Origin: an uncultured Serinicoccus sp.
GTDB taxonomy: Bacteria > Actinomycetota > Actinomycetes > Actinomycetales > Dermatophilaceae
Assembly: GCF_947500995.1 (NCBI RefSeq)
Contig: NZ_CANMUA010000012.1
Coordinates: 1,300-65,299 of the forward strand
DNA length: 64,000 nucleotides
Direction: 5' to 3'
The first letter of the stretch is position 1, and each line of letters begins with the position of its first letter. The position numbers were made by a program, and so were the translations under genes. Below the pieces are notes generated by a model. That model was not told where the DNA came from. It did not search any database and saw only the letters and a program-made list of their open reading frames with translations. Below, piece after piece: positions 53,198 through 63,788 of this stretch.

Positions 53198-54883
53198 TCA
53201 GGCGTCGATGACCACCGGCACCACCAACGGGTTGCGACGGTGCGTGCGGAACGCCCACCGCGAGACGGCCCGCGCGATCCGCTGCTCGAGCTCGTGGACG
53301 TCCCCGATCCCCTGGGAGGCGGCCTCGGCGAGCGCCTTCTCGATCGCGGGGACCGAGGCGCCGAACATGCGCTCGTCGGTGCCCAGACCGCGTGCCAGGA
53401 AGTCCGGCGCCTCGGTGAGCCTGCCCGTGTCGGCGTCGACGAGGGCGACGACGGTCACGGTGCCCTGCTGGCTGAGGGTGAGCCGGTCGCGCAGCTCGTC
53501 CTCGGTGACGTCGCCGACGTTGCCCGCCGAGACGTAGACGTAGCCGGCGCGGACCTTGCCGCTGACGGTGGCCCGCCCCTGGACCAGGTCCACGACCATG
53601 CCGTCGTCGACGACGACGACGTGGTCCGGGTCCATCCCGGTGGCGATGGCCAGGTCGGCGTTGGCGCGCAGGTGTCGCCACTCACCGTGGACCGGCATGA
53701 CGTTGCGCGGCCGGATGATGTTGTAGCAGTAGACGAGCTCGCCGGCGCTGGCGTGGCCGGAGACGTGCACCTTGGCGTTGCCCTGGTGGACGACCTTCGC
53801 GCCCCAGCGGGTCAGGCCGTTGATGATGCGGGAGACGGCGTTCTCGTTGCCGGGGATCAGCGAGCTGGCCAGCAGCACGGTGTCGCCCTCGCCGATACGG
53901 ATCTGGTGGTCGCGGTTGGCCATCCGCGACAGCGCGGCCATCGGCTCGCCCTGGGAGCCGGTGGAGACGAGCGTGACCTTCTCGGGCGGGAGGTTGTCGA
54001 GCTCCTTGACGTCCACGACCAGCCCGCGCGGCACCTCGAGGTATCCCAGGTCCTGGGCGATCTTCATGTTGCGCACCATCGAGCGGCCGACGAAGGCGAC
54101 CTTGCGCCGGTGTGCCGCGGCGGCGTCGATGACCTGCTGGATGCGGTGGACGTGGCTGGCGAAGCTGGAGACCACGATCCGCCCCGGCGCCGTGCGGAAC
54201 ACGGTGTCGATGGCCGGGGACAGGTCCTTCTCCGCGGTGGTGAAGCCGGGCACCTCGGCGTTGGTGGAGTCGACCATGAACAGGTCCACGCCCTCCTCGC
54301 CCAGACGGGCGAAGGCGCGCAGGTCGGTGATGCGGTCGTCCAGGGGGAACTGGTCCATCTTGAAGTCCCCGGTATGCAGCACCGACCCGGCCGCGGTGCG
54401 GACCATGACGGCCAGCCCGTCGGGGATGGAGTGGTTGACCGCGACGAACTCGCAGTCGAAAGGACCCAGGCTGAGCCGGTCACCCTCGGCGACCTGGGTG
54501 GTCCGGGGCTTGATCCGGTGCTCCTTGAGCTTGGCGCTCACGAAGGCCAGGGTGAGGCGCGAGCCGACGACGGGGATGTCCCCCCGCTCCTTGAGCAGGT
54601 AGGGCACCCCTCCGATGTGGTCCTCGTGACCATGGGTGAGGACGACGCCGACGACGTCCTGCCACCGGTCCTGGAGGAAGGTGAAGTCGGGCAGGATCAC
54701 GTCGACACCGGGCTGGTGCTCCTCGGGGAAGAGCACGCCGCAGTCGATGATCAGCAGCTTGCCGCGGTGCTCCAGCACGGCCATGTTGCGGCCGACCTCG
54801 CCCAGGCCGCCGAGCGCCACCACCCTCAGGCCGTTGCGGGGCAGGGAGGGCGGGGCGCCCAGCTCGGGGTGCGGATGGCTCAA
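53198..54883 (-). CDS. rnj: ribonuclease J, 561 aa
   Basis: LRVVALGGLGEVGRNM, the metallo-beta-lactamase motif HGHEDHIGG, a beta-CASP region and a C-terminal domain are all colinear with RNase J. TTG 54883 (LSHPHPELG) is preceded by GAGGAG. The 156 codons further upstream in ORF 53198..55351 look non-coding. Confidence 0.9.
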   Translation of the reverse strand: MSHPHPELGAPPSLPRNGLRVVALGGLGEVGRNMAVLEHRGKLLIIDCGVLFPEEHQPGVDVILPDFTFLQDRWQDVVGVVLTHGHEDHIGGVPYLLKERGDIPVVGSRLTLAFVSAKLKEHRIKPRTTQVAEGDRLSLGPFDCEFVAVNHSIPDGLAVMVRTAAGSVLHTGDFKMDQFPLDDRITDLRAFARLGEEGVDLFMVDSTNAEVPGFTTAEKDLSPAIDTVFRTAPGRIVVSSFASHVHRIQQVIDAAAAHRRKVAFVGRSMVRNMKIAQDLGYLEVPRGLVVDVKELDNLPPEKVTLVSTGSQGEPMAALSRMANRDHQIRIGEGDTVLLASSLIPGNENAVSRIINGLTRWGAKVVHQGNAKVHVSGHASAGELVYCYNIIRPRNVMPVHGEWRHLRANADLAIATGMDPDHVVVVDDGMVVDLVQGRATVSGKVRAGYVYVSAGNVGDVTEDELRDRLTLSQQGTVTVVALVDADTGRLTEAPDFLARGLGTDERMFGASVPAIEKALAEAASQGIGDVHELEQRIARAVSRWAFRTHRRNPLVVPVVIDA

Positions 54884-55065
54884 CGGATCTCCTCGGTTCG
54901 GTGCGGCGGACGGGGCCGTGGGACGGCCTCGCGCTTGGTGCCGACGCGTCGATGGGCGCGCCGGGAACACCAAAGCCCCCGACCGGCATACCTGCTGGTC
55001 AGGGGCTAGTTGGTGGACGATACTGGGATCGAATAAGTTCCACCGCCAAACCCCGATACTGATGT

Positions 55066-55174
55066 TGACCTGCGGAAAGGGGCTCTGACCTGCGTGTTCG
55101 GAGAACAGTATCGCATGACGTGGGAGGACATAAATCGACACCGATGTACTCTGATCCTGCACGTATCCTGCACG
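55066..55174 (+). promoter_or_regulatory. two pairs of short direct repeats upstream of the integrase gene
   Basis: TGACCTGCG occurs at 55066-55074 and 55086-55094 (20-bp period). ATCCTGCACG occurs at 55154-55163 and 55165-55174 (11-bp period), and the last copy ends 11 nt before ATG 55186. Confidence 0.3.
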
Positions 55175-55185
55175 AGAGGAAGCAC

Positions 55186-56310
55186 ATGCCTGGTCGCAAG
55201 AAGCGCGGCTTCGGCCAGTTGCGCCGTCTCCCCAGTAAGCGATGGCAAGCGTTCTACACGGGGCCAGACTGCAAGTTGCACTACGCCCCCACCACCTTCG
55301 AGACCGCTGAAGACGCCGAGGCATGGCTGGCCGCCGAGCGTCGATTGACAACGGGCGATGAGTGGTCGTCGCCCAAGGAGCGCGTGAGCCTCCGACACCA
55401 GCGCGAGGCCACCACCCTCGCAGCCTACGTCGAGAGATGGCTGAGGCATCGCGAGCTCAAGCCACGCACCCGCGAGCACTATACGCAGCTCTTGGAGCGG
55501 CAGATCCTCCCAGCCCTTGGCGCCCTTCCACTTCCGGCGATCACGCGCGAAGTGGTCGGCGACTGGTATGCAGACCTCGATCCCCAGAGACCGACGATTC
55601 GTGCACACGCCTACGGCCTGCTTCGCACCATCATGGGCACCGCGGTGCTGGACGAGAAGATCGCGGCAAACCCCGTGCACATCCGGGGTGCCGGGAACGC
55701 CAAGCGCGCCACCAAGACCGAGCCTGCAACCCTCGAACAGCTCGCCAGTCTGGTGGGCGCTATGCCGGAGCGATACAAGGTCATGACCTTGCTCGCCGCG
55801 TGGTGCGGACTGAGATTCGGGGAGCTGACGGAACTGCGCCGCAAGGACGTCGACCTGACGAGCGGCGTTGTCAAGGTGCGCCGTGCCGTCACCCGCGTTG
55901 GTGGGAACTTTGTCGTTGGCACTCCAAAGTCTCAGGCAGGCATCCGGGACGTGGCGATCCCCCCGCACCTGCTGCCCGCTGTGCGTGAGCACTTTGCCGC
56001 GAACGTGACGGGCCAGGACGGCCTGCTGTTTCCGGCTGCTGGGGACCCTTCCAAACACTTGGCCCCCGCCTCGCTCTACACGGTGTTCTACCGGGCGCGC
56101 GAGGTCGCCGGCAGGCCTGATCTCCGCTGGCATGACCTGCGCCACACCGGCGCAGTGCTCGCTGCTCAAACGGGCGCGACGCTGGCCGAACTCATGGGCA
56201 GGCTAGGGCACTCCACCCCGGCAGCTGCAATGCGTTACCAGCACGCCGCACAGGGCCGGGACGCTCAGATAGCAGCGGCTCTATCATCCATGGCCAAGGG
56301 AATCACCTGA
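55186..56310 (+). CDS. int: tyrosine-type site-specific integrase, 374 aa
   Basis: The N-terminus MPGRKKRGFGQLRRLPSKRWQAFYTGPD is typical of actinobacterial element integrases. Catalytic residues appear in GLRFGEL (Arg), HDLRHTGAV (His-x-x-Arg) and AAMRYQH (Tyr). A GAGAGGAAG RBS is present. Confidence 0.9.
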   Translation: MPGRKKRGFGQLRRLPSKRWQAFYTGPDCKLHYAPTTFETAEDAEAWLAAERRLTTGDEWSSPKERVSLRHQREATTLAAYVERWLRHRELKPRTREHYTQLLERQILPALGALPLPAITREVVGDWYADLDPQRPTIRAHAYGLLRTIMGTAVLDEKIAANPVHIRGAGNAKRATKTEPATLEQLASLVGAMPERYKVMTLLAAWCGLRFGELTELRRKDVDLTSGVVKVRRAVTRVGGNFVVGTPKSQAGIRDVAIPPHLLPAVREHFAANVTGQDGLLFPAAGDPSKHLAPASLYTVFYRAREVAGRPDLRWHDLRHTGAVLAAQTGATLAELMGRLGHSTPAAAMRYQHAAQGRDAQIAAALSSMAKGIT

Positions 56311-56660: not shown

Positions 56661-59600
56661 TCAGCCGTCCATTTGGTCGCCGCGTAACCGGTCTAGCGCC
56701 TCGCGCACCGCCTTGGTTAAGGGGTGCTCCGTGCCCATGACTCGGGTTGCATCCTTCAGCAGCTGCTCGAACTGGGTGATCGCGTCTTTCACCCGCCCGT
56801 CCCCAGTGAGCCAGGACGCGAGGTTGTACCGGGTGGTCAAGGTGTCCGGGGCATCCGGCCCGAGCACCCGCGTACGGTCCTGCAGCAGCTGCTCGAACTG
56901 GGTGATCGCGTCTTTCACCTGCCCGTTCTCACCGAGCCAAGACGCGAGGTTGCCCCGGGCGGTCAAGGTGTCCGGGGCATCCGGCCCGAGCACGCGGAGG
57001 AAGTCCTCCAGCAGCTGCTCGAACTGGGTGATCGCGTCTTTCACCTGCCCGTTCTCACCGAGCCAGGACGCGAGGTTGCCCCGGGTGGTCAAGGTGTCCG
57101 GGGCATCCGGCCCGAGCACCTGCATACGGTCCTGCAGCAGCTGCTCGAACTGGGTGATCGCGTCTTTCACCTGCCCGTCCTCACCGAGCCAGGACGCGAG
57201 GTTGCTCCGGGCGGTCAAGGTGTCCGGGGCATTAGGACCGAGCACCCGCATACGGTCCTCCAGCAGCTGCTCGAACTGGGTGATCGCGTCTTTCACCCGC
57301 CCGTCTTCACCGAGCACGGTCGCGAGATTGTTCCGGGTGGTCAAGGTGGCCGGGGCATCCGGCCCGAGCACCCGGCTGCGGTCCTGCAGCAGCTGCTCGA
57401 GCTGGGTGATCGCGTCTTTCACCTGCCCGTCCCGACCGAGCATGAACGCGAGGTTGTTCCGGGTGATCAAGGTGTCCGGGGCATCCGGCCCAAGCACCCG
57501 GATGAAGTCCTCCAGCAGCTGCTCGAACTGGGTGATCGCGTCTTTCACCCGCCCGTCCCGACCGAGCACGGCCGCGAGGTTGTTCCGGGTGGTCAAGGTG
57601 GCCGGGGCATCCGGCCCGAGCACCCGCATACGGTCCTGCAGCAGCTGCTCGAACTGGGTGATCGCGTCCTTCACCTGCCCGTCCCGACCGAGCCAGGACG
57701 CGAGGTTGTTCCGGGTGGTCAAGGTGTCCGGGGCATCCGGCCCAAGCACCCGGATGAAGTCCTCCAGCAGCTGCTCAAACTGGCTGATCGCGTCCTTCAC
57801 CCGCCCGTCCTCACCGAGCCAGGACGCGAGGTTGCTCCGGGTGGTCAAGGTGTCCGGCGCATCCGGCCCGAGCATGCGCATGTGGTCCGTCAGGAGTTGC
57901 TCGAACTCGGTGATCGCGTCTTTCACCCGCCCGTCCTCACCAAGCCAGGTGCCGACAGCGTGTCGGGTCTCGAGGGGAGCATCGCAAAGACGTGGGAAGA
58001 ACTCTAGGGCAAGCGTGATGGCTTCCCGGTAGCGGTACTGTGCAGCTAGCTGCACGCCAAGTGTCAAGGCCGCGACCTGAACGGCATCGGAGATGGTTCC
58101 GTCTGGTGGGGTCAGATCGAGGAGCCACTGCGCCAAAGCCAAGTTGTGCACCGATGGTGGCATTGCCGAGTTGTCGTCGGCTCGCTCGGTGATGGCCTCG
58201 GTGAGGACGTGTCGGGTGGCGTCGCGAAGTCGAACGATCTCGTCCTGTCCGAGCCCGAGCTCGTCGTCGGTGATGGACTCGTGGACTGGGGCGAGCAGCA
58301 TGTGCTCCCGGACCCAATGGACGTCGTTCTCGTTCAAGCACCAGGACAAGGGCGTCACGGCGTGCTGCAACGAGTTGACGAGCTCGTGTTCCCCGACGCC
58401 GGCCAGCTCGGCTGCCGCCGCCACCGTCGACGGGTCGTAGGTGGGAATCGCACCGTCGGCGTCGCTGTGCAGCGTTGCCTCGACCCGGCTGGCGATCGCC
58501 CTAATGAGGGCGCTCCTGACGGGGGCTGGGAGCTCGTTCCACCGCATGCGCATGACGTCTTGTACTGAGGCCGGTAGCTGGTCGAGCTCGCCAGGGCCGA
58601 GTTCGATTCGTCCCTTGGCCCTGCCGATACGTCGCTTTACTTGTTTCGAGGTGAGCCACAGCTTGATGAAGTGCGGGTTTGGCATCCGCGCTGCCAGTAA
58701 CGCCGCCGTTTCACGGTTGGTCCGCGGCGCCTGCTCCAGGACCAACTGGACCAGGTCAGACTCGTCCAACGGTGCCACGGGCACCACCTCTAGATGACTG
58801 GCGGCGGTCGCGTTGGCGACCCACCGGCTGTACTCGCAGTTGTGGGCGCCTTCGGGCCAGGCCGTGCCAATCACCAGGACCGGCTGCTTGGACGTTGGCC
58901 GCCCCAGCGCATCGAGCAACTCAGCGAGGTCGGGGCCCATTCGGTGAAGATCCTCGATGACGACGACCTGAGGCAGACCAGGGTGCGACAGCTCCCGGAT
59001 GGTGGCAGCCAGCTCCTGCGCCGCAGACGTACGAGCCTGACCGACTTTCAAGCCCATGTCCGTGGTCTGCGCCAGTTCGGCCCGCTTCTCCAGGTGCTGA
59101 CGTGCCTGTCCTATTCCGCGGGCGGAGTACTTCACCACCAGGTTGGCTCCGGGGACAAGGCCGGCGACGTCAGCCAGGAGGTCGATGCCCTCCCCGGCCA
59201 CGTCGGTGCTCAAGGCGCGGATAACCTGCTTCGCCCGGTCACCCAAACGTTCGAACGCGCCCGTCGCCTCGAGCTTGGCCTGGGCAATGCCCGGGACGTG
59301 CGCTTTCAGCTGTGGGTACGATGCCGCTACGACGTCCATGTTCGCGCCGGTCTGCAACCGCTCACACCCGAAGCTCCACCACCCAAACGCCGGCAGCGCA
59401 CCACCGGCGCGCACGAACTCCTCCGGTTCCGGGCCAAGAACCTTGCGGCCCGGCATCGGATCCGCACCGCCGGCACCGGCCACCCTTGTCAGCGCTGGCA
59501 GTTCGGGCCAATACCCAGGGTCCGGCTGCCTATCCCGAAGCGTGCCGTACACCTCTTGGACGATCCTCGACTTCCCCACCCCCGACTCCCCGGTCAGCAC

Positions 59601-59696
59601 CACCACCCGAGGCCGGGCGGTACCACCACGCGATACCTCATCAGCCAGGGAGACAAGGTCTCTCACGACCTGCCGGTGCGCACCGAAGAACATCAT
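56661..59696 (-). CDS. STAND-type P-loop NTPase (AAA_16-like) with C-terminal TPR array, no N-terminal effector domain, 1011 aa
   Basis: Walker A (LTGESGVGKS) starts about 35 residues from the N-terminus. Walker B is QVVVIEDLH. A helical middle region follows, and then ten 42-aa TPR-like repeats (TTRNNLASWLGEDGRVKDAITQFEQLLEDRMRVLGPDAPDTL). Confidence 0.85.
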   Translation of the reverse strand: MMFFGAHRQVVRDLVSLADEVSRGGTARPRVVVLTGESGVGKSRIVQEVYGTLRDRQPDPGYWPELPALTRVAGAGGADPMPGRKVLGPEPEEFVRAGGALPAFGWWSFGCERLQTGANMDVVAASYPQLKAHVPGIAQAKLEATGAFERLGDRAKQVIRALSTDVAGEGIDLLADVAGLVPGANLVVKYSARGIGQARQHLEKRAELAQTTDMGLKVGQARTSAAQELAATIRELSHPGLPQVVVIEDLHRMGPDLAELLDALGRPTSKQPVLVIGTAWPEGAHNCEYSRWVANATAASHLEVVPVAPLDESDLVQLVLEQAPRTNRETAALLAARMPNPHFIKLWLTSKQVKRRIGRAKGRIELGPGELDQLPASVQDVMRMRWNELPAPVRSALIRAIASRVEATLHSDADGAIPTYDPSTVAAAAELAGVGEHELVNSLQHAVTPLSWCLNENDVHWVREHMLLAPVHESITDDELGLGQDEIVRLRDATRHVLTEAITERADDNSAMPPSVHNLALAQWLLDLTPPDGTISDAVQVAALTLGVQLAAQYRYREAITLALEFFPRLCDAPLETRHAVGTWLGEDGRVKDAITEFEQLLTDHMRMLGPDAPDTLTTRSNLASWLGEDGRVKDAISQFEQLLEDFIRVLGPDAPDTLTTRNNLASWLGRDGQVKDAITQFEQLLQDRMRVLGPDAPATLTTRNNLAAVLGRDGRVKDAITQFEQLLEDFIRVLGPDAPDTLITRNNLAFMLGRDGQVKDAITQLEQLLQDRSRVLGPDAPATLTTRNNLATVLGEDGRVKDAITQFEQLLEDRMRVLGPNAPDTLTARSNLASWLGEDGQVKDAITQFEQLLQDRMQVLGPDAPDTLTTRGNLASWLGENGQVKDAITQFEQLLEDFLRVLGPDAPDTLTARGNLASWLGENGQVKDAITQFEQLLQDRTRVLGPDAPDTLTTRYNLASWLTGDGRVKDAITQFEQLLKDATRVMGTEHPLTKAVREALDRLRGDQMDG
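56712..57971 (-). repeat. 10 tandem, near-identical 126-bp coding repeats (TPR units) inside the STAND gene
   Basis: The block CTGCTCGAACTGGGTGATCGCGTCTTTCACC(C/T)GCCCGT recurs every 126 bp on the plus strand. It corresponds to residues 576-995 of the protein. Confidence 0.9.
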
Positions 59697-60398
59697 CAGA
59701 GCATGTCAGAGGAGGCCCCTCGCCGCTGACCGGATGATTAGCGAAGATCCGTCATCGGCGCGTCGCACGAGCGTTCATAGCAGCCAGCCACCACACAGGA
59801 GCAAGGGTCTGCTGTGGCCGGGCCACGGTGCGTGCTCGGGTCGACGCGTGGGGGCTGTCCTAGCCTCCTGGAGGCTCCTCGTGCTCGGGACCAGCCCGCT
59901 GGCCTGGAACGCTGCTGCAGAGGCACGTCCGACGTCGCTCGAGTGCTGCCGCGCTGTCCCGTGAAAGGCGGGGCAGTGGGATGGGGCGGTTCAGCATGAA
60001 TCTCTCGGGGCCATGACGAGCGAACTGTCAGCAGCAGAACTGGTTGGGGTCCTTTTCCTGAGCAAGGTGTCTCATGACGGCGCGTTGTGCGGCTCGGGCG
60101 CCAACAGTCATACGTCAAGGGGTGCGGGTGACCTGTTCAACGGCGCCCTCGTCCAGGTCCGTGAACACGATCGACCAGTGTTTAACGCGTTTCACGCTCT
60201 GGGAGTCGGGGTCTCGCAGGTAGCGCACAGTACGGAACCGGTGCTGATCAATTCACAGGCGCTTGACGTCCCGGCGGTCTCGGCGGTGTCCAGGTCCACG
60301 GTGGTGAGCATCCGCATCACCGTGTGTCTAGTTTTCAAGCGCCGCCGACACCGTGGGACAGGACGGGTCTCCCATGCCAGGTCCGGCAGGTACCCGCA

Positions 60399-61808
60399 TC
60401 ACGGAGCGGTGCGGGAGACAGGACCAGCGGGCGGGGTGCAGTTGGTTGTTCCCTGTCCGTACCGCGCCTGCTCACGCACGAGGCGGAGCCGTCCGGGATC
60501 CGGACGTGGGCCGATCCGCTCGATCACTGAACTAGCACAGTAGTTCGGTCTGCCGGCGATGGTGCTCACGGCTTGGTCGAGTTGCCGGGCGGCCCGAAGC
60601 GGGCCTTCGGCCTCCAAGGCGGTCGACTGCATCAGTACCCTGGGCAGCGGCACCGGTCGCCTCAACTGCACGCTGCGCGGCGACACTGGCGTGGAGCGGG
60701 GGTCCGGCACGCGTCCTTGTTCGATCATCGTGGCGATCATTCTTGAGGCGCCTCGCGCGTCGACCACAAGGCCCGGGTTGCGGGTCGCGGTGACGAATGC
60801 GTCGGCGATGCCTACTGCACTGAGGTGGTACTGGCGCAGCGCGGCTAGGGCTGCTCCCATGTCGGTTCGTGCGGTGATGACTTCGGGTGTGGCCGGTCCG
60901 AGGCGGTCTTTGGTCAGTTCTCCGAAGGAGGTCCGCAGATCGACGCTGGCGTGCTGCAGCGCCCCCGCTCGCCCTTGCACGGGGTGTGTCAGGACGTCCC
61001 AGGTGCTGGCAAGAGAGAGCCAAGAGTTTCCGGCGTGCTCCAGTGCCGGGTCCAGCTGGGTGCGGTGCTCCCGGGCGTCGATGTGGCCTGCGTCCGCGGC
61101 AATGCGCCAGAGGGCGCGGGCATAGGTGGTCGTGACGTGCATGGTGGCTGCCACGTCCCGTAGGTCGCGTGCCGTTGGTTCACTGGTAAGTACGCGGTGG
61201 GCATGGATGTCGAACGCGCTGACGTTGCTGCCGAGGCGGTCCGGGTCCGACCAGTCGCGGTGCGTCTCGGTGAGCGCCTCCGGGTAGGAGCTCTCGTGGT
61301 AGCCGAGCGCAAGGCTGGTCGGGATCTCCATTCGCCGTCGGAAGTCCTCGTCCACGGGTGAATGTCGCCTCAACCCGACCGTGGTGGCGTGCCCGGTCAG
61401 GTAGACGACGTGTGTCACCTGCACCCTGGTGGCGAACGCATCCCGAAGGTGGTCGGGGGTCGGGAGCTTCCGCACGTTGGAGTTCTCGATGGCCTCGGCC
61501 GCCCGCACCATCAGGGACCCGATGGCCTCGAGGTCACGATCGGGCTCGAGTCGTTGGCCGGTACGCCTGGCGTGCAGGGCACGCGCGTCACGGCCTAGTG
61601 CCTGAACATGCGCCTGTATCTGGTCGAGCACCCCGACCTGGGGCTCGGCTGACCCAGCCTGGGGAATGGCGCGCCAGAGCCGGCAAGAGTTCCCGACGAG
61701 GGTGTTCCAGGACCGGACCATCGGTAACCCGTCACGATCAGGAGCGTCGTAGAGAAGGGACCGGGCTCGGAGCTCGGCTTCCTGCAGGAGTTCACCGACA
61801 CTAGGCAC
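60399..61808 (-). CDS. hypothetical protein (469 aa), no recognised domain
   Basis: It is a long ORF with coding-like third-position bias. GTG 61808 overlaps the upstream gene's TAG by 8 nt. The last 50 or so residues are low-complexity and may be read-through. Confidence 0.55.
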   Translation of the reverse strand: MPSVGELLQEAELRARSLLYDAPDRDGLPMVRSWNTLVGNSCRLWRAIPQAGSAEPQVGVLDQIQAHVQALGRDARALHARRTGQRLEPDRDLEAIGSLMVRAAEAIENSNVRKLPTPDHLRDAFATRVQVTHVVYLTGHATTVGLRRHSPVDEDFRRRMEIPTSLALGYHESSYPEALTETHRDWSDPDRLGSNVSAFDIHAHRVLTSEPTARDLRDVAATMHVTTTYARALWRIAADAGHIDAREHRTQLDPALEHAGNSWLSLASTWDVLTHPVQGRAGALQHASVDLRTSFGELTKDRLGPATPEVITARTDMGAALAALRQYHLSAVGIADAFVTATRNPGLVVDARGASRMIATMIEQGRVPDPRSTPVSPRSVQLRRPVPLPRVLMQSTALEAEGPLRAARQLDQAVSTIAGRPNYCASSVIERIGPRPDPGRLRLVREQARYGQGTTNCTPPAGPVSRTAP

Positions 61809-62172
61809 GGCAGCGGTCCCGGATGGTGTCGTTCAGGGCCGCCACCAGCGCCGTCGTCCCAGGCGAGAACTCATGGATCGGCCGCTGCCGGGTGGCAAGC
61901 TCTGCCTGCCGTATCAGCTCCCGAGGGTCCTCACCGGTAGGGTCACCGTGCTGGTCTGCTCCCAGGTCGATGCCGTCAGGCAGCAGAGACAGGGCCAGCC
62001 CGTTCAGCCAGCCGGCCTCGAGTGAAAGCTCGGCCATGACCAACCCGGCCGGGTCCGTCCCTGGTGCCACCTGCGCGAGGGCCTCTCGCTCAGCCTTGCG
62101 AAGCAGGTTGGTGGCCCGGATGAGGGCCTCCAGGGCGGCCGGTGTCGTCAGGTCTGGTCCGCGGGTCTTCAT
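61801..62172 (-). CDS. hypothetical protein (123 aa)
   Basis: ATG 62172 is preceded by GAAGGA. The protein is predicted to be helical. It is translationally coupled to the 469-aa ORF. Confidence 0.5.
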   Translation of the reverse strand: MKTRGPDLTTPAALEALIRATNLLRKAEREALAQVAPGTDPAGLVMAELSLEAGWLNGLALSLLPDGIDLGADQHGDPTGEDPRELIRQAELATRQRPIHEFSPGTTALVAALNDTIRDRCRA

Positions 62173-62414
62173 CGCTCGTCCTTCGGGGTGATAGGTGGTG
62201 CTTCAAGGTGTTGCGCCCCATCACCGCAGTTCGGCGCCCCGGGTGGGAGCTGTTCTGCCAATCTGTGGATAGCTCCTCGGGTATGTCAGGGCCGTGCGCA
62301 ACAGTGGTCTCACCATCCGCAAGCCGGGCAGCGGCCGCCTCTGGCATCACCGATGCCGGATTCGCGTCATCGCAACTAGTGCTCGACTGGCACGGTGAAA
62401 GCAGGTGCGTGACG

Positions 62415-63284
62415 ATGAGCATCATCCGAGCCCGGGTCCTCCGTCGTGGCGCCCTGGCCTTGCCGCTCACTGTCAGTGCCGTGCTCTTGCTGGTCCTCGT
62501 GTCTCTCCCTGCGCCTTGGGGCACCGCGGTGCTGACCGGGGTTTTCCTGGTCGCGTTCTGGGGCCTGACCGGAGTGGGGGAAGTGGCCGTGGTGCGCGCC
62601 CTGACGTTCGCCAGCCGAACCAAGCTGCACCAGCGGTACACCCTGGCCGGGGTCGCTCGCGTGCTTCAGGACTGCGGAGTGGATCCGGTACAGCTGTTGG
62701 TGGCCCGATGGGGAGGGGTGTGCGCCCGCGCGTACGGCCGGCGGACCGTGGTCGTCGGCCGGTCTTTGGTCGAGGAGGTGGCTCGCGGACGGCTCCCCTG
62801 CGCCGACGCCGCTGCGCTCATCGCGCACGAGGTGGGGGTCCAGCGCGTTGGGCTAACACGCACCGACGCCGCCCTCGGGGTGATCCTGCTGCCGTGGGAG
62901 TTGGTGGCCGGCGCCATGATCGGTCTCTGGCGGGCCCTGGGGGCCACCCTTGCGCCGTGGGTCCGCTGGGCCAGCCTCGCGATCGCCTTCGGGATCCAGA
63001 TCTGGCTCGCGGCCACAGCCGATGCGCGACACCTCGCTCCTGCGCTGTTGCTCGGAGCCATCTTCGCCACGTGCGGGCTCAGCCAGGCCTGGTCCCGGGC
63101 CCGCGCCGACCTTGGTGACACCTACCTCACCCAGCACGGGCTGGGAGCCATCTACGCCACCATCCTGTGGCGCAGCTTCCCGGACGACCGCTCCCGCGAC
63201 CGAGCAGTCCGGTTGCTGCACCCGCCGGCACCCCAGCCTTCTGGTTCCAGCCCCGTACAGGCCACCATGCGATCCGGGCTCTGA
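62415..63284 (+). CDS. polytopic membrane protein with a degenerate M48/M56-peptidase-like segment (HEVGV instead of HExxH), 289 aa
   Basis: ATG 62415 is M92 of ORF 62142... Two N-terminal TM helices are followed by a soluble loop ending AAALIAHEVGVQRVG, and then more TM helices. The layout resembles M48-type proteases but lacks the second His. Confidence 0.55.
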   Translation: MSIIRARVLRRGALALPLTVSAVLLLVLVSLPAPWGTAVLTGVFLVAFWGLTGVGEVAVVRALTFASRTKLHQRYTLAGVARVLQDCGVDPVQLLVARWGGVCARAYGRRTVVVGRSLVEEVARGRLPCADAAALIAHEVGVQRVGLTRTDAALGVILLPWELVAGAMIGLWRALGATLAPWVRWASLAIAFGIQIWLAATADARHLAPALLLGAIFATCGLSQAWSRARADLGDTYLTQHGLGAIYATILWRSFPDDRSRDRAVRLLHPPAPQPSGSSPVQATMRSGL

Positions 63285-63296
63285 AACCTCCTCGGA

Positions 63297-63788
63297 TCAG
63301 GGAACGGCCCACAGATGCTGACACCCAGGCCCCGCGCCTGGTGTTGCGTGCTCGAGCAGCCCTTGCAGGTCTGCGGCAGCGGCCGCAGCCGCCTTCAGGA
63401 ACCGGCGAGTCATCACGGCCGACAGCTGCGCGGTGGCGTGCAGGTCGTCTTGCCGGCACAGCGCGGTCGCGACGGGAGAGACGGTGTGACCCGCCGCGTC
63501 AAGCAAGGACGCCACAGCTGCTGCCGCCAACCGTGTCTCGTTCCACGCAGGCGTCGTCGGCACGTCCTCCAGCACACCGCGGGCCAGGTACGCCGCGTCG
63601 GCAAGGGTGCGCCGCAGGTCTACCGCTTGATCTATCACCACCAACGTCGGACTCTGCGTGGCGGCCACCTCAGCCCACCCGTCCACATCACTCAACCGCG
63701 CCGCCACCAACTGGATCACCTCCCGCACCCTGCCGAGGGCCGTCATTGGCTTTGGCGGGATGCGACCGGGCACAGCCGAAGTGCTCAC
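63297..63788 (-). CDS. hypothetical protein (163 aa)
   Basis: GTG 63788 overlaps the TGA of the upstream partial ORF (GTGA). The composition is helical and Ala-rich. No family was recognised. Confidence 0.45.
   Translation of the reverse strand: MSTSAVPGRIPPKPMTALGRVREVIQLVAARLSDVDGWAEVAATQSPTLVVIDQAVDLRRTLADAAYLARGVLEDVPTTPAWNETRLAAAAVASLLDAAGHTVSPVATALCRQDDLHATAQLSAVMTRRFLKAAAAAAADLQGLLEHATPGAGPGCQHLWAVP

Follow-up and report, generated by a model that had tools for sequence, protein, structure and literature searches.

Proteins that join a STAND NTPase to a C-terminal array of repeats are known from both immune and regulatory settings, and the closest described systems fall into three groups. 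The antiviral STAND (Avs) proteins, comprising Avs1-5 (AVAST) and Avs7-21 (Lee et al. 2026, PMC13581612), carry a large C-terminal sensor resembling tetratricopeptide repeats (TPR), and in the Avs families tested the effector domain is needed for cell death (PMC13581612). The NLRs of fungi and filamentous bacteria (Dyrka et al. 2014, PMC4986451; Dyrka et al. 2020, 10.1101/2020.01.06.895854) combine an NB-ARC or NACHT module with an N-terminal effector, or with a short amyloid motif that is paired with an adjacent effector gene; the TPR arrays of the fungal proteins are built of 42-aa units with more than 85% internal identity, polymorphic repeat number and variable sites on the concave face (PMC4986451). 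The MalT/LAL-type AAA_16 STAND proteins, represented by PH0952 (PDB 6mfv) and E. coli MalT (8bob), form the third group, in which a C-terminal LuxR-type helix-turn-helix (HTH) domain is a characteristic trait. Here we describe a gene that shares features with all three. It lies at 56661..59696, on the minus strand, of a 64,000-nucleotide stretch of DNA from an uncultured Serinicoccus sp. (contig NZ_CANMUA010000012.1, positions 1,300 to 65,299 of the forward strand; this whole stretch is hereafter the window), and its product is a divergent AAA_16 (MalT-type) STAND NTPase without effector or DNA-binding domain, which we tentatively read as a candidate NLR-like sensor.

With the MalT/LAL group the protein shares an AAA_16 match above the Pfam cut-off, the order of nucleotide-binding domain (NBD), helical domain, winged-helix domain and helical-repeat sensor, and the best whole-architecture Foldseek matches; its Walker B motif, of the form hhhhED-x-H, resembles the DDxH of that group. 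Unlike MalT/LAL proteins it has no C-terminal LuxR-type HTH, and some 50 extra residues with invariant Trp/Pro motifs separate its Walker A helix from strand 2. The likeness to Avs proteins consists of the STAND NTPase with its large TPR-like C-terminal sensor, of horizontal mobility and, for some relatives, of a location in defence islands. However, the protein matches no AVAST model of PADLOC, has no N-terminal effector (the module starts at about residue 5-30) and bears a regular 42-aa TPR solenoid, whereas the sensor folds of Avs proteins are irregular and family-specific. The 42-aa TPR units recall the fungal and filamentous-bacterial NLRs, as do the concentration of variation on few helix positions and the polymorphic repeat number, and the internal identity of 86% over 168 aa exceeds the benchmark set for those arrays (more than 85% over at least 100 aa). 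In contrast to the latter proteins, the module here is of AAA_16 type, there is no N-terminal extension and no adjacent gene is conserved. Finally, the best NCBIfam match, through the TPR_10/TPR_12 region, is the TPR protein of the FxSxx-COOH system (NF040586, 275.5 bits). Membership in that family was rejected, the score being below the cut-off of 300 and the alignment joining residues 536-813 to profile positions 424-710 only, that is, to the TPR region; no radical-SAM or precursor genes are found nearby.

The STAND gene and its NTPase module

The gene and its parts are as follows.

56661..59696, minus strand: AAA_16-type STAND NTPase with TPR array, 1011 aa (ORF, translation, codon GC, Pfam, AlphaFold2)
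59568..59591, minus strand: Walker A motif GESGVGKS, residues 36-43 (sequence reading)
58944..58967, minus strand: Walker B motif VVVIEDLH, residues 244-251 (sequence reading)
58272..59696, minus strand: NOD module of nucleotide-binding, helical and winged-helix-like domains, residues 1-475 (AlphaFold2, Foldseek)
59385..59528, minus strand: Trp/Pro-rich insert specific to the family, residues 57-104, after the Walker A helix and before strand 2 (conservation in 79 members)
57975..58271, minus strand: helical spacer, residues 476-574 (AlphaFold2 helices 484-505, 516-527, 537-552 and 556-566)
56664..57974, minus strand: TPR array of ten 42-aa kinesin-light-chain-type units, the last degenerate (Tandem Repeats Finder, Foldseek)

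The open reading frame (ORF) is intact, starts with ATG and shows the codon composition typical of a true gene in a high-GC genome (GC content of 0.83 at third and 0.45 at second codon positions). The gene call in the source database is 931 aa long and begins at Met81, and thereby drops the P-loop (window 59456-59696, residues 1-80); since homologues conserve residues 1-80 including Walker A, the longer, 1011-aa ORF has the correct start. Four relatives (P0002, P0016, P0044 and P0147) likewise begin at about profile position 82-121. Walker A and Walker B are separated by about 207 residues. Pfam assigns AAA_16 to the protein at 39.1 bits, above the gathering threshold (curated cut-off of 32.6), together with TPR_12 (E 3e-105, 10 stretches) and TPR_10 (E 3e-76, 9 stretches); further matches are to AAA_22, TPR-S and, faintly, nSTAND_NTPase5 (nSTAND5). 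Sequence, Pfam and Tandem Repeats Finder together bear out what an earlier note on this DNA had described: a 1011-aa ORF with a P-loop near the N-terminus, the Walker B motif VVVIEDLH and ten TPR units.

No nuclease, protease, TIR or HTH family was found for the NTPase in Pfam, NCBIfam, PHROGs or PADLOC, and neither NACHT nor NB-ARC is present in its Pfam output at E ≤ 0.01. The C-terminal LuxR-type HTH of LAL/MalT proteins is absent, no HTH family being matched and the protein ending about 25 residues past the last TPR helix. The N-terminal OmpR-type winged HTH and the BTAD domain of SARP/AfsR proteins are also absent, with no Pfam match and no room before the P-loop. When the NTPase and eight neighbours were searched with PADLOC, no meaningful match emerged, the two hits obtained being at chance level (E 0.003-0.007) and to unrelated models. 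PHROGs returned repeat-driven matches only, and a PDB sequence search with the N-terminal profile of the family gave P-loop-level matches only (E ≥ 0.03). Nor was a short N-terminal amyloid motif of the BASS/HET-s type recognised, residues 5-22 being a confident helix within the AAA_16 match (no dedicated motif search was run).

An AlphaFold2 model of the full-length protein was built on a 79-member family alignment and reached a predicted local distance difference test (pLDDT) score of 89.9 and a predicted template-modelling (pTM) score of 0.83; it supersedes an earlier run on 7 sequences, which was poor (pLDDT 63.7, weak Foldseek matches). In the model the elements follow one another as expected of STAND proteins, from the NBD through the helical domain, the winged-helix domain and the spacer to the TPRs: the strands of the P-loop core are at residues 31-35, 105-110, 243-248, 273-279 and 302-306, the helical domain at 312-359, a winged-helix-like region with a hairpin (453-462) at 378-475, the helical spacer at 484-566 and a regular TPR solenoid at 575-1010. 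The best whole-architecture match in Foldseek is the archaeal STAND-TPR protein 6mfv (E 1.9e-9, 872 columns), and the N-terminal model matches MalT 8bob, Cdc6/ORC, clamp loaders and RdrA with low TM-scores; Foldseek TM-scores are modest altogether (0.28-0.45). The list for the full-length model is dominated by the TPRs of kinesin light chain, OGT and APC, and is informative for the repeat type only.

The Walker A and acidic Walker B motifs expected of a STAND NTPase are conserved. Among the 79 family members G39 and K42 are invariant and E248, D249 and H251 are at least 90% conserved; the latter three are invariant in the 7-member alignment, and E248 and D249 in two family alignments smaller than that of the 79 members. 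W524, in the helical spacer, is also conserved across the 79 members. The motif that follows strand 4 reads GTAWPEG, in which W280 is at least 90% conserved among the 79 and invariant among the seven closest relatives. This Trp may occupy the spot that is usually held by the sensor-1 Arg in the AAA_16 and NB-ARC consensus.

The insert at residues 57-104 is conserved on a par with the Walker motifs. Its motifs are Y62-W63-P64 (YWP), R84-K85-x-x-G-P89 (RKxxGP) and P102-x-F104-x-W106 (PxFxW), of which W63, P102 and W106 are invariant in the 79 members, and Y62, P64, R84, K85, P89 and F104 at least 90% conserved. The insert is predicted to have little secondary structure and to be mostly non-helical, with pLDDT values mostly of 84-95 that fall to about 53 in residues 71-80 and below 50 at 75-77.

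A homogenised and focally variable TPR array

Tandem Repeats Finder detected a 126-bp period at 56752-57949, with 9.5 copies and 89% matches, and in Foldseek the units match the TPR domains of KLC1/2 at 27-32% identity. Identity between the internal units amounts to 84-95% in DNA and to 74-90% in protein, the 86% identity cited above being that of a 168-aa window at a shift of 84 aa (two units). Across the units the pooled ratio of non-synonymous to synonymous substitution rates (dN/dS) is 0.82. Eight of the 42 codons (unit positions 2, 3, 6, 9, 22, 24, 25 and 40) hold 72% of the non-synonymous differences; the synonymous differences are scattered along the whole unit. The array is thus internally homogenised and focally variable, and the sensor is fast-evolving. 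By inference from the helix boundaries of the AlphaFold2 model, unit positions 34, 38, 2 and 6 would share one face of the first helix of each unit (spacing i, i+4, i+11, i+15), the helix that lines the concave groove in TPR proteins.

Such homogenisation recurs in the family, 12 of 124 representatives being at least 70% identical to themselves when 168 residues are compared at a shift of one or two units. The repeat number also varies among close relatives of the Pseudoglutamicibacter type, most of those compared belonging to one 90%-identity cluster: three units and an unrelated tail were found in two relatives, and eight or ten to eleven units in others. The two short proteins are P0159 and P0161 of Pseudoglutamicibacter albus (WP_101630579.1 and WP_219401410.1), in which the three TPR units are followed by an unrelated tail (…AIPYTSKPSPTMNGS); in a relative at more than 90% identity the array counts ten to eleven units, and the short form looks like its truncation by a frameshift.

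An effector-less family in Actinomycetota

A word-index search with residues 1-560 retrieved seven proteins, from which a profile was built and run against 1.84 billion cluster representatives (clusters at 50% identity). At E ≤ 1e-30 the family comprises at least 424 clusters, a number that rises to 804 at E ≤ 1e-10; WP_367889949.1 is among its accessions. Nearly all of the best 150 representatives (of 424) have the start of the NTPase module within residues 1-30, so that an N-terminal domain is missing family-wide. Among the 40 longest or most extended members, Pfam found AAA_16 in 39, the remaining matches being to TPR families, and the 25 commonest Pfam matches include neither an effector nor an HTH family; one member, P0138, covers positions 7-167 of the 167 in the AAA_16 profile. 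The lack of an effector or DNA-binding domain, which the earlier note had read from the single protein, was confirmed for it by Pfam, NCBIfam, PHROGs and PADLOC and extends to the family, as far as the best 150 representatives and the 39 of 40 members go.

In species-representative genomes there are 15 clear loci, all in Actinomycetota, in genera that include Serinicoccus, Actinomyces, Rothia, Schaalia, Nakamurella, Corynebacterium, Mycetocola, Mycolicibacterium, Ancrocorticia, Leucobacter and Terrabacter. The distribution across the phylum is sporadic and involves the single gene. NCBI labels these relatives as 'tetratricopeptide repeat protein' only. A STAND NTPase with a TPR sensor is of a known kind; new are the lack of an effector throughout the family and the distinctive conserved insert. 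PADLOC 2.0 does not recognise the family. The family may already be among the 589 STAND clades that have been catalogued (Lee et al. 2026, PMC13581612).

The gene is cargo of an integrated element

The DNA around the gene contains the following features.

55011..55033, minus strand: tRNA 3'-end-like fragment TTCGATCCCAGTATCGTCCACCA (sequence reading; unique in the window)
55186..56310, plus strand: tyrosine integrase, 374 aa from the ATG at 55186 (Pfam Phage_integrase and SAM-like domain, phrog_1)
60399..62172, minus strand: overlapping 123-aa and 469-aa ORFs (mobile-element backbone; recur in loci L055-L058)
62142..63788, both strands: 380-aa membrane-protein ORF (plus) and 163-aa ORF (minus) of the same conserved module

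GC content drops from about 0.76 in the flank to about 0.66 from roughly 54.5 kb, and is low from there to the end of the window. The full-length integrase matches phrog_1 (E 2e-60) and mycobacteriophage integrases (41% identity over 99% of its length), and the STAND gene is convergent with it. The fall in GC begins near the fragment TTCGATCCCAGTATCGTCCACCA, which reads as the T-loop, the 3' strand of the acceptor stem and CCA of a tRNA. No full tRNA was found at 55011-55033 by ARAGORN or Rfam and no second copy of the fragment within the window; its position and sequence make it a probable remnant of an attachment (att) site at the integrase-side border. In the same 300-bp gap the octamer CAGTATCG is present in two direct copies and one inverted. 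The placement of the gene beside an integrase in lower-GC DNA (66% against 76% in the flank) is therefore as first described; the island is bounded by the integrase on one side, which is the single border visible in the window, the other lying out of its view.

The last gene of the chromosomal flank encodes RNase J. The ORF listed for it (53198-55351, minus strand, 717 aa) overlaps the start of the integrase and has a 175-residue N-terminal extension without any match; its true start is probably the TTG at about 54884, after GAGGAG, which would give the usual length of about 560 aa. On the other side of the STAND gene, the roughly 700 bp upstream of its start (59697-60398) contain no credible gene. 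A 126-aa ORF at 59738-60118 was discarded as a gene, its product being Arg/Pro-rich and without family matches. A hairpin with a 10-bp stem is found at 60297-60324; no sigma-70-like promoter was detected in 59697-60398, and the scan for promoters and terminators was uninformative.

Beyond this gap lies a module of four ORFan genes, of about 163 aa, 285-380 aa (the membrane protein), about 123 aa and about 469 aa, which is kept elsewhere in order and orientation. None of the 469-, 123-, 380- and 163-aa ORFs has a family match in Pfam, NCBIfam, PHROGs or PADLOC. Homologues of the 469-aa ORF share 89%, 77%, 71% and 28% identity with it, and the pair of small and large ORFs was found, with no STAND gene, in loci L055-L058. 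The 28% homologue of L055 and L056 comes after an overlapping 121-aa gene, and the 380-aa ORF matches a divergent 288-aa gene there (31% over 220 aa, E 0.001); L055 also has SSB, ParB_N, DUF4192 and DUF932 genes nearby. L057 keeps the gene order of the window (164, 285, 125 and 465 aa), and in L058 an IS110 element is located downstream of the 465-aa gene, at the very spot held by the STAND gene in the window. Because the module recurs elsewhere without a STAND gene, the 469-aa and 123-aa ORFs are assigned to a mobile-element backbone. Its neighbours in L055 make the module look like the backbone of an integrative or conjugative element, of an actinobacterial type not yet characterised. On this sequence evidence the STAND gene is cargo of an integrated element, in a slot of variable content that has the integrase on one side and the backbone genes on the other.

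Neighbourhoods of the relatives

No partner gene accompanies the family. The neighbours in the window gave nothing significant in tblastn searches against the first seven homologue loci, and an all-versus-all BLASTP of the predicted ORFs of 22 loci found no conserved partner, the multi-locus cluster being that of the STAND gene itself and the sole other cluster in more than two of these loci covering four of them, without the window. The closest homologue, in Serinicoccus kebangsaanensis (locus L008, 13411-14778, 67-68% identity), has no neighbour in common with the window; a gene for a DUF222 protein follows it, and two ORFs that could not be annotated, 687 aa and 144 aa long and on the other strand, precede it.

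Some of the relatives are found among defence genes. Locus L001 contains Mrr, AAA_21, DUF3800 and a complete Wadjet system (JetABCD) that starts 306 bp from the family gene, and L003 contains a HEPN gene, an OLD-TOPRIM ATPase pair, DpnI and PIN. DarT is at 0.8 kb in L011, and PglW at 2.1 kb in L012 and 0.7 kb in L014. By a crude count, 5 of the 18 family loci (L001, L003, L011, L012 and L014) lie within 5 kb of a known defence or toxin gene, for which the binomial P is 6e-6 against the published background rate of 0.0153 taken as the null (PMC13581612) and 1.5e-3 against a generous null of 5%. L004, which encodes YoeB/YefM and a SUKH immunity protein, is a further locus that looks like a defence island. 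The association of the family with defence islands is partial. The PglW-type kinase genes, in Mycetocola and Nakamurella, are at 1465-9290 of L014 and 14768-17281 of L012 (PADLOC E = 0); a 1187-aa neighbour in Mycetocola is probably PglX, and PADLOC also found the MADS components mad3, mad6 and mad8 among the neighbours.

Discussion

The best reading of the STAND-TPR protein, though one that we hold tentatively and at slightly less than even confidence, is a candidate NLR-like intracellular sensor in conflict with phages or other mobile elements. We infer ligand sensing, oligomerisation and a role in defence for it. The protein would be a stand-alone STAND-type switch, in which an AAA_16 (MalT-like) module leads through the helical spacer to the ten TPR units. 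The groove of the TPRs would bind a foreign or altered protein; this binding would release autoinhibition, and the nucleotide-bound module would then oligomerise. Our preferred guess is that the output would pass through the oligomer itself, which may sequester the bound target or recruit an unlinked host factor through the Trp/Pro insert; an adjacent gene as the output is unlikely. The description as Avs/NLR-like in the earlier note thus survives as regards the NTPase-plus-TPR layout, with some support for a conflict role from the 5 of 18 loci and the homogenised array, but not as regards the domain families, there being no Avs/AVAST, NACHT or NB-ARC match. That note had also named two findings that would speak against a defence gene, namely homologues that are consistently housekeeping regulators and a cryptic HTH; instead, those 5 loci lie near defence genes and no HTH was detected.

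Several points weigh against a role in immunity. The protein has no effector through which it would harm phage or cell. No PADLOC model, AVAST/Avs included, is matched, and searches of IMG/VR viral contigs, PLSDB plasmids and phage genomes retrieved no family member. In most loci the gene is located amid housekeeping genes (PFK, PheT, RsfS, SelB, transporters), and the count of 5 in 18 is crude in that it is based on Pfam and PADLOC matches rather than on DefenseFinder and includes genes of toxin-antitoxin type. Moreover, architecture alone does not settle function, because defence and non-defence STAND clades are intermixed in phylogeny (PMC13581612).

The main rival, somewhat unlikely in our estimate, is a housekeeping or accessory switch of the MalT/LAL kind, whose DNA-binding domain was lost or never present, and which would sense a small molecule or a cell protein via its TPRs and regulate an unlinked partner by protein contact, with no part in immunity. 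The NTPase, which is of AAA_16/MalT type and not NACHT, NB-ARC or Avs, would suit such a switch, as would the metabolic and translation genes that surround most family loci and the abundance of non-immune STAND clades interleaved with immune ones (PMC13581612). However, a homogenised and focally variable array with repeat-number polymorphism would be unusual for a sensor of a fixed metabolite, and the sporadic single-gene distribution in Actinomycetota, the position of the window gene as cargo on an integrase-borne low-GC element and the enrichment of defence genes nearby also argue against it. Regulators usually travel with their targets, whereas the neighbourhood here is wholly unconserved. 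That cargo position might rather suggest a function for the element than for its host, be it the exclusion of competing elements, the control of excision or transfer, or an addiction-like function. The slot is next to the integrase, where a related element has an insertion sequence, and the backbone resembles genes of conjugative or integrative elements; yet the 10 kb around most homologues contain no integrase or other genes of an element, and the family was not found on the plasmids, phages and viral contigs searched, so that we consider this explanation quite improbable. It also overlaps with the defence reading, the exclusion of rivals being a form of defence.

Finally, the earlier note had proposed that the effector is encoded in trans by the neighbours at 60399-62172, which would make the NTPase the sensor of a multi-gene system with the 469-aa and/or the 123-aa ORF as its effector. 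These ORFs are indeed unannotatable, upstream of the NTPase and on the same strand. But about 700 bp without a credible gene separate them from its start; the pair, the divergent membrane ORF and the 163-aa ORF occur in L055-L058 without a STAND gene, beside SSB, ParB, DUF4192, DUF932 or IS110; and none of the other family loci compared (L001-L022) has a homologue of these ORFs. We therefore abandon this proposal as very unlikely.

To our knowledge, the antiviral STAND proteins tested by experiment all kill the cell or arrest it by means of an effector, whether fused to them or encoded next to them. Whatever its function, the sizeable actinobacterial family described here keeps a switch and a fast-evolving sensor without an effector in cis or a conserved gene nearby. 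In practical terms, public annotation labels these proteins as 'tetratricopeptide repeat protein' only, and some automated gene calls appear to hide the NTPase through starts at internal Met codons that remove the P-loop. If the protein has no role in defence, it would provide a negative example, showing that an NTPase-plus-TPR layout, a mobile-element site and repeat homogenisation are insufficient to call a defence gene. If instead the candidate NLR-like sensor does act in defence, it would show either how an NLR works with no executioner dedicated to it, or which host factor, encoded elsewhere, is recruited. The family may even represent a distinct class of bacterial NLR-like immune sensor without enzymatic effector, in which the insert would serve as a new output or recruitment module, or the oligomer would neutralise its phage target by sequestering it. 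We consider this improbable, but if true it would be a mode of signalling that has so far not been described among the STAND defence proteins of prokaryotes.

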